Assembly (NCBI GenBank): GCA_964394335.1 | Contig: CAYMVZ010000002.1 | Coordinates: 1-60,619, forward strand | Length of the DNA stretch: 60,619 nucleotides | Direction of reading: 5' to 3' | From: an uncultured Nitrospinota bacterium | GTDB lineage: Bacteria; Nitrospinota; Nitrospinia; CAJXCL01 | In this document: piece after piece, positions 18,759 through 32,382 of the stretch | How positions within the stretch are numbered: the first letter of the stretch is position 1 | Layout of the letters: each line of letters starts with the position of its first letter | Program-made: the position numbers and the translations under genes | The notes under the pieces: model-generated | Told to the model about the DNA's origin: nothing | What the model saw: only the letters and a program-made list of their open reading frames with translations | Database searches by the model: none

Positions 18759-19054
18759 AATTAAATGGTAAGCTCCTTTTTCAATATCATGGTACTAAGC
18801 AAAAATCAAATATAAATATTTAAAATAAAATGCTAAAATAGTTTGTATAAAAAGCGTAGAAGATTGCTTTAATCAGTTTCATAAGTGGTAAGAAAATAGC
18901 TGTTTTTTTGCGTATGTGAGTCTAAAAGGTATCGCCAATTATTTGACAAAAAAGGTGTTTCAATGTCAAAGATTTAGTTTTATAATACTTATATAAGAGG
19001 AGGATAATTTTTATCTTATTGAAAATCAATTAGTTAAGATAAAAATTTCTATAA

Positions 19055-19070
19055 TGGCATCTTAATTGCT
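19055..19070 (+). promoter_or_regulatory. sigma54 (-24/-12) promoter of the motA-fli-flh operon
   Basis: TGGCAT-CTTAA-TTGCT, GG-N10-GC spacing, one mismatch to TGGCAC-N5-TTGCW, 50 nt before the motA ATG. Confidence 0.75.
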
Positions 19071-19120
19071 CTTTTTGATAAAACCTATTGATCTATTTCT
19101 ATTAAGTTGAAATAATTTTT

Positions 19121-19882
19121 ATGGATATTGCGTCTATCATTGGAATCATTGCTTGTTATGGGCTGATAATTATGGCTATCGGCACGCAATTGATACTCTT
19201 TGTTAATATTCCATCCGCTCTCATTGTAATTAGGGGGACTATTGGAGCAACCATGATTAATTTCCCATTGAAAGACGTTATTGGAGCCATTAATGTTGGA
19301 AAGAATGTTTTTCTTGTAAAGAGTACCGACCCTTCTCTGATTATTAGGGATTTGGTTGAATATGCAGGTAGAGCAAGGAAAGAAGGCATTCTGGTCTTAG
19401 AATCGGTTGTCGGGTCTATTAAAGATGAATTTTTAGCCAAAGGCATTCAATTAGCGGTTGATGGGCTGGAGCCTAAATTTATACAACAAATTATGGAAAC
19501 AGAAATTGAAAGAATAGAAGACCGACACAAACACGGTGCCGATGTTTTCTTTACCATGGCAACTTTATCTCCTGCTTTCGGACTGATTGGAACTTTAGTC
19601 GGACTCGTATTAATGCTTCAATCAATGGATGATCCCAGTTCTATCGGGCCTTCGATGGCCGTAGCGCTCATCACAACCTTTTATGGAGCTCTTCTGGCAA
19701 ATACATTGTTTACTCCAATGTCCGGAAAATTAAAAGCCAGAAGCAAAGAAGAAATGTTAATAAAAGAATTGATATTAGAAGGAATTTTGAGTATAGCGGG
19801 GGGTGACAACCCCAGGATTATGGAGCAAAAATTAAACTCATTTTTACCTCCTAAATTAAGAAAGACTACTTTTGAAAAATAA
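19121..19882 (+). CDS. motA: Flagellar stator A subunit (PomA/MotP-type)
   Basis: ARKEGILVLE, FLAKGIQLAVDG, PAFGLIGTLVGLV, AVALITTFYG. Confidence 0.95.
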   Translation: MDIASIIGIIACYGLIIMAIGTQLILFVNIPSALIVIRGTIGATMINFPLKDVIGAINVGKNVFLVKSTDPSLIIRDLVEYAGRARKEGILVLESVVGSIKDEFLAKGIQLAVDGLEPKFIQQIMETEIERIEDRHKHGADVFFTMATLSPAFGLIGTLVGLVLMLQSMDDPSSIGPSMAVALITTFYGALLANTLFTPMSGKLKARSKEEMLIKELILEGILSIAGGDNPRIMEQKLNSFLPPKLRKTTFEK

Positions 19883-19883
19883 A

Positions 19884-20612
19884 ATGACAAAAAAACTTTT
19901 CCATAGAATATTACAATTAATTAAAAAAGAAAAAGGTGGCGCGTTTATTGTTATGTATACATCTTTAAGTGTTATTCTTCTGGCCTTTTTTGTTTTGCTT
20001 AATACAATGTCTACGGTTGACGATCAGAAAGTTGCAAGAGCTGTTCATTCCATCAGGAGCAGCTTTGGGGTGCTTTCTTCGGATATAAGATGGTTAATGG
20101 GAATCAAACCGAAACTTTCTTCTGAAGTTGAAATCCTGGCAATTCGAGAACTTGAAGTACATACTCTTTCAAGGGAACTCGAAGAATTTGCAATACTGCA
20201 AGATATGGGAAAGGACTTTGGACTTTTTACTACAGAAGAGGGAACTATTATTTCACTTTCTGAAAAGGTCGGGTTTCTCCCTGGTAGCTCTGAAATAGAG
20301 CCGCCAATGCTTCCGATTCTGGATAAGATCGCCACGCTGATTAACCGGACCGGCTTTGTTGCGCATATCGAAGGACATACTGACAATATTCCAATTAACA
20401 CAAAACAATATCAATCCAACTGGAAACTGTCAGCAGCAAGGGCTGTTAATATTCTCAAATATCTTATAGAAAAAGGAAAGGTTGACCCAACAAAAATCGC
20501 TGCCGCGGGATTTGGCAACGACAGACCTTTATTTTCAAATGATACCTCGCTGAATAGAAGTCATAATCGGAGGGTGGAAATAGTATTGTTAAAAAATAAA
20601 AATGAGCTTTAA
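19884..20612 (+). CDS. MotB-like protein lacking the conserved TM Asp (start ATG 19884)
   Basis: TM FIVMYTSLSVILLAFFVLL aligns with the MotB TM; OmpA-like domain EGHTDN, NWKLSAARA, NRRVEI. Confidence 0.85.
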   Translation: MTKKLFHRILQLIKKEKGGAFIVMYTSLSVILLAFFVLLNTMSTVDDQKVARAVHSIRSSFGVLSSDIRWLMGIKPKLSSEVEILAIRELEVHTLSRELEEFAILQDMGKDFGLFTTEEGTIISLSEKVGFLPGSSEIEPPMLPILDKIATLINRTGFVAHIEGHTDNIPINTKQYQSNWKLSAARAVNILKYLIEKGKVDPTKIAAAGFGNDRPLFSNDTSLNRSHNRRVEIVLLKNKNEL

Positions 20613-20660
20613 ATATTGTTGTTAGTACTATGAGAAATTGTAATAAAATTGAGTTTTAAA

Positions 20661-21467
20661 ATGAAAAAAAAGAATGAAGAATCTGAAGATGGAGGAGTGG
20701 ATCCCAACGCCTGGATGGTTACTTTTTCTGACCTGTTAACATTGATGATGACCTTTTTTGTGTTGCTTTTAACCATGTCGACTGTGCAACCTCAAGAAGT
20801 AAAAGAGGCTTTTAGTATTTTTGACAGTCTCTACTATGAGGAAGGAGCACATGATACCGCGGAAATAGAGTCATATGGTGTTATGGATGCTAAAGGAGGG
20901 AGCCCGAAAATGGGACAACAAGGTGGTATAGTGGGTTTACCTTTTAGGCAGGTGTCTGCCAGAACGATTGCGAAGGATGCTGAGGAACTTGAGGTGCTAT
21001 TCACTGAACTTGCGCGTGACGCCGAAACAAAATTTACTGATTTTTCAGAAGAAGAAGCAAATGAACTTAAAAACATTGTGGTAGCAAATGATCCGGAAGG
21101 AATAACCGTTCATTTACCTGACTCATTGTTATTTAAAACGGGGGATTCTGAGATTAATCCTCACTTCATTGCGATTTTGAAGATGATGGGAACTTGGTTT
21201 CAGAAAACGCCGTATATCATAAAGATAGAAGGGCATTCAGACAATACTAAAGTTAAGAATGCAGTGTTTTCCTCCAACTGGGAATTATCTGTAAACAGAG
21301 CAACTAATATCATGCGTTATTTTATAGAAAATAAATTTATTATAGATTCAAAGAGAATCTCAGCATATGGATATAGTGAATTTCAACCATTAGTTTCCAA
21401 CGATTCCATAGGGAACCGTAAAAAAAACAGGAGGATTGAAGTAATTTTTAAAAAACCAAAAATTTAG
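20661..21467 (+). CDS. motB: Flagellar stator B subunit, canonical (start ATG 20661)
   Basis: WMVTFSDLLTLMMTFFVLL; EGHSDN, NWELSVNRA, NRRIEV. Confidence 0.93.
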   Translation: MKKKNEESEDGGVDPNAWMVTFSDLLTLMMTFFVLLLTMSTVQPQEVKEAFSIFDSLYYEEGAHDTAEIESYGVMDAKGGSPKMGQQGGIVGLPFRQVSARTIAKDAEELEVLFTELARDAETKFTDFSEEEANELKNIVVANDPEGITVHLPDSLLFKTGDSEINPHFIAILKMMGTWFQKTPYIIKIEGHSDNTKVKNAVFSSNWELSVNRATNIMRYFIENKFIIDSKRISAYGYSEFQPLVSNDSIGNRKKNRRIEVIFKKPKI

Positions 21468-21671: not shown

Positions 21672-22193
21672 ATGGCAGAAGAAGAAATAGAAGAAAAAGA
21701 AGAAATAGAAGAGGCCCCTAAAAAAGGCGGAAATCTTAAACTTATAATAATTATTGTAGCGGTTCTCGCAATTTTGGGAGGCGGTGGTGCATTCGCCTGG
21801 TTTAAGTTTATTGCTCCGGCCATTGGGGTAGGAGAAGAAACTGTTAAAGAAGAGAAACAAAAAACGGAGTCTGAAAGTGCAGAAATTGGCACCGGAACCA
21901 TGTTTCCTCTGGATTCATTTATCCTAAATCTTTCTGGAGAGGGTGGAAAAAGGTTTTTAAAATTAACAATGGAGTTGGAGCTGAGTAATTCGGCATTAAA
22001 TAACGAAATAACTGCTAACGTTCCCAAAATAAAAGACTCAATATTGATCTTGTTGAGTAGCAAGACATTTAAGGATATTTATACTGTTGAGGGCAAATAT
22101 AAACTACGCGATGAAATAACCGCTAGAATTAACCGTTTTTTAGTTACAGGACAGGTAAAAAGTGTATATTTTACAGAATTTGTTATTCAATAA
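21672..22193 (+). CDS. fliL: Flagellar basal body protein FliL
   Basis: N-terminal TM; FILNL...FLK...IKDSILILLSSK...EGK..LRDEI..RIN...VYFTEFVIQ. Confidence 0.95.
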   Translation: MAEEEIEEKEEIEEAPKKGGNLKLIIIIVAVLAILGGGGAFAWFKFIAPAIGVGEETVKEEKQKTESESAEIGTGTMFPLDSFILNLSGEGGKRFLKLTMELELSNSALNNEITANVPKIKDSILILLSSKTFKDIYTVEGKYKLRDEITARINRFLVTGQVKSVYFTEFVIQ

Positions 22194-22211: not shown

Positions 22212-23192
22212 ATGAGTCAGGTTTTATCACAAGATGAGGTCGATGCGCTATTAAGAGGCGTCACCGACGGAGAAATTGAAACGGAAACAGACCAACCTAT
22301 AGACGACTCCGGCATAGTTCCTTACGATTTAACCAGCCAGGAAAGGATTATTCGCGGGAGAATGCCTACTCTCGACATTATTAATCAGCGATTTGCCAGG
22401 CTTTTTCGTACCAGCATATCCGCTATGCTGCGTAAAGTCGCCGATGTTACGACTGTTTCTACTGATACAGTTAAATTTGGTGAATTCATTAAATCTCTTC
22501 CTGTTCCGGCCAGTCTGCATATTTTTAGAATGGAACCTCTTCGAGGATTTGCCCTGCTTGCCGCTGAAAGCAAGCTGGTGTTTTCTCTCGTGGATAATTT
22601 TTTCGGTGGCGGCAGCGCGACTTCTTTCAAGGTTGAAGGACGCGATTTTACTTCTATTGAACAAAAGATGATTAAAAAAGTTGTTCTTGGGGCTCTGCAA
22701 GATCTGGAGAAGGCCTGGAAGCCCGTGCATCCAGTCCAGGTATCTTTTGTCAGATCTGAAATAAATCCGCAGTTTGCCGCAATTGTTCCAACTACGGATG
22801 TTGTGGTTGTTATCTTATTTGAAATTGAAATGGAAAATGTTACAGGAACAATTACGGTTTGTCTCCCTTACTCAACAATTGAACCAATTATTACTAAACT
22901 GAGAGCGGGATTTCAGAGTGATCAATTGGAAGTTGACCAGACATGGGTAAAAAGGTTGCGAGAAAAGTTGCAGACTGCTGAGGTGGAATTATTGATAGAG
23001 TTAGGGAAAACAACATTGAGATCCAATGAGTTAATAAATTTAGATTTAGGAGACATTATTCAGTTAGATAATGACGTGAGCGACGAATTGCTGCTCATGG
23101 TTGAAGGAATTCCTAAATATAAAGTATACCCCGGTGTGTCAAGGGGTAATAAAGCTGTTAAAATTTCACAATTTATTAAGAGAGGAGAGTGA
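22212..23192 (+). CDS. fliM: Motor switch protein FliM
   Basis: [10 protein letters not shown] CheY-P binding motif, YDL, C-terminal SpoA domain. Confidence 0.97.
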
Positions 23193-23197
23193 ATATT

Positions 23198-23593
23198 ATG
23201 GCAGATGATGATGTATTAGGTTCCTTTGAGGATGTTTCTTCCGGTGACTCTGGAGATATAGCATCACAAGATTCCGGAGGAGAGGTGGGTTTGGAAGCCC
23301 AACTGGACAAAGACCTGGAGAAAGTAACTGATAATAAAAATCTCGATATGATCCTGGATATACCACTTGTTGTGACCGTTGAATTGGGCCGAACAAAGAT
23401 GATGATTAATGACCTTCTTCAGTTAGGACAGGGATCTGTTATTGAGCTTAGCAAATTAGTTGGAGAGCCTTTAGAAATTCTTGTAAATGAAAAATTGGTG
23501 GCACGGGGTGAAGTTGTTGTTGTCAACGAAAAATTCGGGGTTCGCTTAACTGACATAGTTTCACCTATGGAACGTATCGAAAGCTTAGGATAG
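23198..23593 (+). CDS. fliN: Motor switch protein FliN (ATG 23198 preferred over GTG 23189)
   Basis: [32 protein letters not shown]; AGGAG 10 nt upstream. Confidence 0.96.
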
Positions 23594-23599
23594 TAAAAA

Positions 23600-24676
23600 A
23601 TGAAAAAAATATTTTATGTTCTGTCTATGGTTGTTTTTATGCTTTGGGGAGCACCGGTCCTTGCAGTAGATCTGTCAGCATATAATTATTTGCAAGGCAT
23701 AGAGACTTCCTCATCCGAAAATGAAATAAAAATAGCTATAAACTTTAGTAAACCGATTAATGATGTTCGGAAACCTCAATTTTTTGAAAAATCCATACAA
23801 TTTGCTTTTAATAAAACTTATGTTAAACCGGCTAAAAAAACCTTTAACATTGGAGAAGAATTAATTTCTGATGTACATATTTATCAATATGACAAAAACA
23901 GTGTGCGACTAAGGCTGATCATCGGCAAGGAGGATGTATGGGATGAGGATAGATTGGCATATGAAAAAAAAGGTAATCAGTTGGTAATAAGTGTTTCAAA
24001 AAAAAGTACGGATTTGCTGAATAATATGTTCGAAGAAAATTTAAGCTTACCCGTTGTAGATATTGAAAAACATTTCAATAAACCTATTGAACTCCTCTCA
24101 GACGCAAAATATCAAGAGGATTTGACACCGGTTATCTATGATGAAACTGATAAAAACAAAGTCAGCTTGGATGTTAATAAAAATGAAAAAAACATTGGTT
24201 CTAATAACGTCACCGGCCCAACCCTTTTTTCTTCATCTATAAAAGTAGTTACAGCACTAACAATAGTCCTCTCTTTAATTCTGCTAACTTACTATTTTGT
24301 GAAGAAATATCTGCTAAAAGACGGTTCGTTATTAGGAATGGATAAACAGGTAAAAGTTATTTCTACAAGTTACATAGCACCCAAAAAGAGCATTTCCCTG
24401 GTTGAGGTCGCTGGAGAAATTTTAGTTTTAGGTGTAACAGTATCGAATATCAATTTGCTGACTAAAATTGAAAATAAGGAAGCTGCTGAAAGGATAAAGG
24501 GAAAAAAAGAAAGCCGGTTAGCTAACTGGAAAAAAAATAAACAGATTATATCCTCGTTTTCCAGGCAACTGGATGATTACACATCAAAAACGGATGAAAA
24601 AGGGAAAAAAAGTAGTTCAGTTAAAGTAATAAATCGTTTAATAGAGGAGAAAATAAACAAGTTAAAAACAGTTTAA
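23600..24676 (+). CDS. fliO: Long FliO with signal peptide and N-terminal periplasmic domain
   Basis: C-terminal TM then VISTSYIAPKKSISLVEVAGEILVLGVT; position between fliN and fliP. Confidence 0.8.
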   Translation: MKKIFYVLSMVVFMLWGAPVLAVDLSAYNYLQGIETSSSENEIKIAINFSKPINDVRKPQFFEKSIQFAFNKTYVKPAKKTFNIGEELISDVHIYQYDKNSVRLRLIIGKEDVWDEDRLAYEKKGNQLVISVSKKSTDLLNNMFEENLSLPVVDIEKHFNKPIELLSDAKYQEDLTPVIYDETDKNKVSLDVNKNEKNIGSNNVTGPTLFSSSIKVVTALTIVLSLILLTYYFVKKYLLKDGSLLGMDKQVKVISTSYIAPKKSISLVEVAGEILVLGVTVSNINLLTKIENKEAAERIKGKKESRLANWKKNKQIISSFSRQLDDYTSKTDEKGKKSSSVKVINRLIEEKINKLKTV

Positions 24677-32016: not shown

Positions 32017-32382
32017 ATGTTAATTCTTCCGAATCAGGCAGGTGTGGCACTTGGGATGTTTGCGTTTGCAATTGCATCTCTGGTAAGTATTTTCTCTGAA
32101 GTGGCGCTTGAGATAGCGGTTCTCAGAGGGGGAATTGCTTTTCTGATTTTTTCGGTTTTCGGCTGGTTAATGGCATATCTTATTTACGAAGAGGAAAAAC
32201 CGGAAACCGAAAAGAAAAAACCTGCATATGATGATGCTAAAGCTGAGGAAGAAACTGTTTCAGCTCCGGTCGAATCTACTGCAGCTGCAAAAAGTCCTGT
32301 TGCAGTTCCGGCAACTGGAGATAGCACAACCGGTGATTTAGATGATCAGGGTTTAGAGGTGCCGGATGATAGTGATTTCTAA
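32017..32382 (+). CDS. Hypothetical 2-TM protein with acidic Ala/Pro/Glu-rich tail
   Basis: ORF fills the flhG-fliA gap in operon orientation; two hydrophobic segments. Confidence 0.7.
   Translation: MLILPNQAGVALGMFAFAIASLVSIFSEVALEIAVLRGGIAFLIFSVFGWLMAYLIYEEEKPETEKKKPAYDDAKAEEETVSAPVESTAAAKSPVAVPATGDSTTGDLDDQGLEVPDDSDF

Follow-up and report, generated by a model that had tools for sequence, protein, structure and literature searches.

Why would a flagellar operon place two motB genes behind a single motA, and why should one of the two lack the aspartate that is invariant in MotB and binds the ion? The question is raised by a 60,619-nucleotide stretch of DNA from an uncultured Nitrospinota bacterium (the window). 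The gene between motA and motB, here called motB', encodes a full-length paralogue of MotB with serine at the ion-binding position; its product is referred to as B', and the Asp-bearing partner as B. The original prediction had given the positions of these open reading frames and of the Ser and Asp codons, and a reading of the sequence returns exactly the same positions. The genes, the two codons and a promoter candidate are as follows.

19055–19070, plus strand: candidate sigma-54 type −24/−12 promoter (TGGCATCTTAATTGCT), 51 nt upstream of motA
19121–19882, plus strand: motA, 253 aa, stator A subunit, PomA/MotP-like (Pfam MotA_ExbB, 1.7e-31)
19884–20612, plus strand: motB', 242 aa, MotB paralogue without the ion-binding Asp
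19962–19964, plus strand: Ser27 codon (TCT) of motB', at the position of the MotB ion-binding Asp by sequence reading and alignments
20661–21467, plus strand: motB, 268 aa, canonical stator B subunit (Pfam MotB_plug, 9.2e-17, 60.8 bits; OmpA, 1.6e-14, 54.4 bits)
20730–20732, plus strand: Asp24 codon (GAC) of motB, the conserved ion-binding Asp of MotB
21672–22193, plus strand: fliL (Pfam FliL, 3.5e-25)
22212–23192, plus strand: fliM, from the ORF list, in the same operon as motA, motB' and motB
23189–23593, plus strand: fliN, from the ORF list, in the same operon as motA, motB' and motB

The locus and the architecture of B'

The start codon of motB' is located one base past the stop of motA. 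Downstream of motB the operon continues with fliL, fliM, fliN, fliO, fliP, fliR, flhB, flhA, flhF, flhG and fliA; a 121-aa ORF without a Pfam match (32017–32382, plus strand) lies between flhG and fliA, and fliA is followed by the gene for a DUF2802 protein. The FliO homologue of the window (23600–24676, plus strand) is unusually long at 358 aa. Its FliO domain covers residues 245–324 only and the approximately 240 N-terminal residues have no Pfam match; FliO has 125 aa in locus L081 and 196 aa in locus L082. That the locus has one MotA, as had been predicted, holds for the 60-kb window, and extra stator sets may be located elsewhere in the genome. The top NCBIfam model for MotA is PomA (272 bits, below its cut-off of 341), and the highest scores are those with PomA and MotP, which are sodium-type stator proteins. 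The sequence TTFYG in the last membrane helix of MotA resembles the Thr-Thr site of PomA. The flagellar motor encoded in the window may be sodium-driven.

The pattern TGGCAY-N5-TTGCW has a single match in the whole window (chance expectation 0.13), which is the promoter candidate in front of motA. This same motif also precedes motA in 40 of 72 related loci. As the motif is unique in the window and recurs at the same place in the relatives, the stator/switch operon of these lineages probably depends on RpoN, with motA, motB' and motB as the opening genes of a flagellar operon that is probably sigma-54-dependent. The junctions are tight; the median gap in the related loci is 16 nt from motA to the B' gene and 7 nt from there to the B gene, with many overlaps of 1 or 4 nt. 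Taken together with the shared promoter motif, this makes it very probable that the three genes are on one transcript. In metatranscriptome data, single short contigs match motA and motB' (20390–20558) exactly; this is weak evidence for expression, as carry-over of DNA is possible.

B' and B share 33% identity over their full length (BLASTP, E 2e-40). Their membrane helices (AFIVMYTSLSVILLAFFVLL in B' and AWMVTFSDLLTLMMTFFVLL in B) align without gaps, as the original prediction had it, with Ser27 of B' opposite Asp24 of B. An alignment with the Clostridium sporogenes MotB structure (6YSF) spans B' from end to end and puts Ser27 on the ion-binding Asp of 6YSF. Pfam identifies MotB_plug in residues 15–61 (36.5 bits, cut-off 24) and OmpA in residues 131–229 (64.1 bits). 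Three elements can be located along the chain.

19941–20015, plus strand: transmembrane helix of B', residues 20–44 in the AF2 model
20022–20063, plus strand: plug-like amphipathic helix of B', residues 47–60 in the AF2 model, inside the Pfam MotB_plug match
20274–20570, plus strand: OmpA-like peptidoglycan-binding domain of B', with 8/8 motif residues (G-H-x-D, S, R, N-R-R)

The AF2 model of B' has a mean pLDDT of 76, and the linker (residues 56–86) is disordered. The model's C-terminal domain has the fold of the MotS, PomB and MotB periplasmic domains (target-normalised TM-scores 0.82–0.90). The peptidoglycan-binding domain that B' was said to have kept is thus present, and B and B' of the window each hold all eight motif residues. 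The segment that follows the membrane helix is conserved, and S56, F61 and G62 are conserved family-wide. B' therefore has the helix and plug of MotB/PomB, the OmpA-like domain and the place next to motA in a flagellar cluster; the invariant membrane-helix Asp (Asp32 in Escherichia coli) is replaced by Ser27. The downstream motB has every sequence feature of MotB/PomB, Asp included. A MotY-type accessory protein is soluble and periplasmic, without the MotB helix and plug, and B' has both. No NCBIfam model scores above its cut-off for B' (the best has 141 bits and a cut-off of 259), and family members are named 'MotB' or 'OmpA family protein' in the source databases. In Desulfovibrio vulgaris (DVU0048–0050) an 'OmpA family' gene presumably lies between motA and motB.

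Conservation, descent and selection

A homologue search with B' returned orthologues with 56–100% identity and remoter relatives with 30–45%, all of which carry Ser, Ala or Gly in place of the Asp. The closest named related locus, from a Nitrospinota bacterium, has 76% identity to B'. A scan of one genome per species with the word pattern ILLAFF[IV]LL gave 80 loci. The order motA, Asp-less B', Asp-bearing B is found in 73 of the 80, nearly always with fliL, fliM and fliN next; the remaining loci are at contig ends or had one of the three genes missed by the ORF/BLAST screen. The triplet occurs in Nitrospinota, Nitrospirota, Desulfobacterales, Myxococcota, SAR324, Lambdaproteobacteria and others. 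The residue at the Asp position was read directly in the loci. Among 74 B' sequences it is Ser in 51, Ala in 16, Thr in 6 and Cys in 1, and Asp in none (0/74), so the loss that the original prediction proposed to look for in other triplets is conserved and the orthologues do not retain the Asp. The partner B has Asp in 100% of the loci, inside an invariant W..TF.D helix motif.

The prediction had allowed that a nearby acidic residue might stand in for the Asp. The membrane helix is free of Asp and Glu along its whole length in all 74 B' sequences. B' could in principle still conduct ions through other residues, as roughly half of the family has Ser or Thr there and an Asn at +13 is conserved. 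Many members have Ala, Gly, Cys or Pro at the site, however, which leaves no conserved polar group; in addition to the missing acidic residues, W−6 and T−3 around the site are relaxed. We regard conduction by B' as very improbable.

The 100% invariance of ILLAFF[IV]LL in the 80 loci is partly built in, since the scan used that pattern, and for this reason our claims on conservation rest on a pattern-free profile search. The search covered 1.84 billion cluster representatives (50% identity), with the Asp position assigned by alignment to a fixed column. The best 150 hits included 132 of suitable length, and among these 132 best hits 60 are Asp-less and 72 Asp-bearing. The site residue in the 60 Asp-less representatives is Ser (29), Ala (23), Gly (4), Thr (2), Asn (1) or Pro (1). 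A Gly-type B' that retains the Trp is found in L081, in the same gene order of motA, B' and B. Asn-type B' proteins in L082 (1327–2040) and L083 (924–1637) retain the W..TF of true MotB and are found in the order motA, B', B, fliL; they look like a less derived form or an independent loss of the Asp.

When the window is compared with its two closest relatives, dN/dS (Nei-Gojobori) is 0.28–0.34 for motB', 0.31–0.53 for motB and 0.16–0.18 for motA; dS is low for the amino-acid divergence, with AT-rich codon bias under the Nei-Gojobori method as the probable cause, and the ratios are comparable between genes only. In a neighbour-joining tree (no bootstrap), all 74 B' sequences form one clade, apart from every B and from the outgroup MotB proteins. 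The pairwise distances of B' and B correlate (r = 0.70). The single clade and the correlated distances point to one old duplication, after which B' and B would have been inherited jointly. Decay of the kind seen in pseudogenes, which had been named as the outcome that would speak against a function, is not observed in B': the frames are intact, dN/dS is not near 1 and the distribution is not patchy. The Asp-less B' is a genuine feature, ancient and widespread, and it is under selection.

A base-call error had been judged unlikely, and this judgement is borne out by an independent marine metagenome assembly (run X2) that is identical over 18900–21443. The idea that motB' arose from a sequencing error or is a duplicate in decay is refuted by this assembly, by the intact frames, by a dN/dS of about 0.3 and by the conservation across phyla; nothing was found in its favour, and we give it practically no credence.

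The membrane helix of B' is not relaxed evenly. In the pattern-free set, entropy averages 2.34 bits over the cytoplasmic half (−6 to 0 from the Asp column), as compared to 1.18 bits in Asp-bearing MotB, whereas the periplasmic half (+1 to +15) has 1.30 bits as compared to 1.19. In these alignments constraint is released around the lost ion site (W−6, T−3, D0), and the remainder of the B' helix is held as in a working MotB. B' and B have the LL.FF.LL core in common. B' also has conserved substitutions of its own, namely Ile at +4, Ala at +7 (Thr in the partner B) and Ile at +10; the three positions share a helical face with the lost Asp. The half-relaxed profile suggests that the B' helix packs in a MotB-like protein environment.

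The entropy profile bears on whether B' is located in the MotA ring at all. B' might sit outside it, as a membrane-anchored wall-binding scaffold that arose from a duplicated motB and resembles MotY and the T-ring or partners FliL. No part of B' is better conserved than the OmpA domain (seven or eight of the eight motif residues in 60 of the 74 loci), fliL is directly next in the operon, and wall-binding accessory proteins are common in flagellar motors; MotY is a wall-binding stator accessory with an OmpA-like domain. In a plain anchor, however, neither the plug nor the periplasmic half of the helix would stay as conserved as in MotB, Pfam detects MotB_plug in B', and the B' gene is always between motA and motB. 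We consider such a scaffold unlikely.

Complementary losses in B and B' and a proposed mixed stator

A stator that generates torque requires both an ion site and a wall anchor, as is established for MotB. In about 20 of the 74 loci, mostly of the Myxococcota type, the Asp-bearing B has at most four of the eight peptidoglycan-binding residues and the partner B' has seven or eight. The Pfam OmpA match was inspected in B of ten such loci; it is absent in five, below the gathering cut-off in two and weak or truncated in three. All ten partner B' proteins have a complete OmpA match (44–69 bits). The degenerate domain of B is still an OmpA-like homologue (hhalign probability 98.9%), and an open frame of similar length is kept. 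Asp-bearing B proteins with a degenerate anchor occur in the Myxococcota-type loci L009, L010, L025, L033, L040, L057, L063–L065 and L068, and further in L069, L071, L073, L074, L078 and L079. The reverse, in a milder form, is seen in several loci of the Desulfobacterales type, where B' has four to six of the eight motif residues and B is intact (L013, L016, L035, L053, L054 and other loci of this type).

In these sequences the division of labour is lineage-dependent, and the Asp is always and only in B. At the Myxococcota-type loci neither a B2 nor a B'2 dimer would unite the ion site with a canonical wall anchor, going by the motif residues. The simplest reading of an ion site and an anchor that are split between B and B' is that both proteins are in one complex. 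This argument reaches the window locus only by homology, as B and B' of the window are both fully anchored.

The same loci weigh on the possibility that B' forms non-conducting MotA5-B'2 units of its own, which would act as inert placeholders, brakes or static struts beside MotA5-B2. B' has retained helix, plug and wall anchor; with the LL.FF.LL core common to B' and B, either could fit the ring, and in E. coli the motors are blocked by neutral Asp32 mutants of MotB, which still assemble. At the Myxococcota-type loci, however, B2 units would be left unanchored. B' is very probably co-transcribed with A and B, is often translationally coupled to them and has no regulatory domain. With similar helices and roughly equimolar synthesis, mixed dimers would be expected to be the commonest form unless they are actively excluded. 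Separate MotA5-B'2 units are in our view fairly improbable. The original prediction had offered two hypotheses, an asymmetric B/B' stator and an anchoring brake; the brake has found no specific support, and the asymmetric stator is favoured because the half of the B' helix away from the ion site is conserved as in MotB and because B has lost its anchor at the Myxococcota-type loci, where B' has retained it.

We lean modestly towards a MotA5-MotB-MotB' unit with a single ion-binding Asp, which is a prediction from sequence. B' would be seated beside canonical MotB within the MotA pentamer, with both helices inside one ring. B would carry the ions, and B' would supply the second axle helix, the plug and the wall anchor. 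The mixed unit is also backed by the presence in B' of all parts of MotB but the Asp, by the fixed gene order and tight junctions, by the neutral site, by the dN/dS values and by the correlated distances. If a mixed dimer were poisoned by B', most stators would be disabled, which is hard to square with conservation across phyla. The residues at the B' site are small and neutral, with Asn among them, and this suggests a site that is permanently 'protonated'; Asn is reportedly the classic mimic of protonated Asp (Kojima and Blair 2001). We speculate that the B' site behaves in this way and that ions would then drive only every other 36-degree step.

Several observations count against the mixed unit. 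Neutral substitutions of Asp32 in E. coli MotB reportedly abolish function, and many are reportedly dominant-negative (Zhou et al. 1998). The current alternating-site model of the 5:2 stator uses both Asp residues, and a unit with a single Asp would require a modified cycle. The spacing from helix to OmpA domain in B' and B does not co-vary (r = 0.14, n = 41) and is uninformative, and at several Desulfobacterales-type loci B' has part of its anchor motif only. On balance, motB' most likely codes for a working third subunit of the stator that is under selection, and the asymmetric B/B' stator is a well-supported hypothesis, though not proven.

Comparison with known stators and implications

Canonical MotB, PomB and MotS, as in the MotA5MotB2 structures (6YSF, 6YSL, 6YKM and 8BRI), and B' are alike in the N-terminal helix with its LL.FF core, the plug helix, the flexible linker, the C-terminal OmpA-like domain and the motA-adjacent position of the gene in a flagellar cluster. 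They differ at the invariant Asp, which in B' is Ser here and Ser, Ala, Thr, Gly, Cys, Asn or Pro family-wide, and in the loss of the Trp and Thr on the cytoplasmic side. Unlike canonical MotB alone, B' always co-occurs with a second, Asp-bearing MotB. MotY and the T-ring, PflA/PflB and the FliL rings are additional proteins by which stator units are positioned or stabilised, some with OmpA-like domains. B' differs from all of them in being a MotB paralogue over its full length, with the helix and plug of MotB.

The closest gene layout is that of Aquifex aeolicus, where a single motA and a pair of motB genes (motB1 and motB2) are in one operon, an arrangement that its authors called unusual.(PMC4525482) The membrane and N-terminal regions of MotB1 and MotB2 are 97% identical and both have the Asp; the differences are confined to the periplasmic domains, and either MotB functions with MotA as a chimera in E. 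coli.(PMC4525482) The window differs in the ion site itself. B' and B are not an Aquifex-type pair with near-identical, Asp-bearing membrane regions, as their helices differ and the Asp is in B alone.

In concept, the closest system is the gliding motor of Myxococcus, which has one A-type protein (AglR) and two unlike B-type proteins (AglQ and AglS), TolR-like and both reported with a mid-membrane Asp.(PMC9389320) It is not flagellar. The complex predicted for this motor, AglR5-AglQ-AglS, has a heterodimeric axle and gives the mixed MotA5-MotB-MotB' unit a precedent.(PMC11761067)

In a survey of stator evolution the gene downstream of motA was taken as the B subunit, and Asp-less forms are unmentioned.(PMC12505986) Surveys made in this way would pick the Asp-less paralogue in the lineages described here. 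A full-text literature search found no description of an Asp-less MotB paralogue, with the proviso that absence from the searched texts is no proof of novelty.

What emerges is a stator operon with a dedicated non-ion-binding B paralogue that is conserved across phyla. MotA5MotB2 is among the most thoroughly studied molecular machines; its current mechanism rests on two equivalent, alternating Asp residues, and a B gene that has dropped the Asp is a natural experiment on it. The loss of the Asp in B' and the loss of the anchor in the B of one lineage make it testable whether one ion site is enough and what the second axle helix does. The split between B and B' likewise makes it testable how plugging and anchoring separate from ion conduction. 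We see an even chance that many lineages (Nitrospinota, Nitrospirota, Desulfobacterota, Myxococcota and SAR324) run 5:1:1 stators, with one carboxylate per unit and with conduction and anchoring divided between two B-type subunits. If this is true, a strict alternating cycle of two Asp residues is not the only way to run a 5:2 rotary motor, which can function or be gated as a half-site engine.
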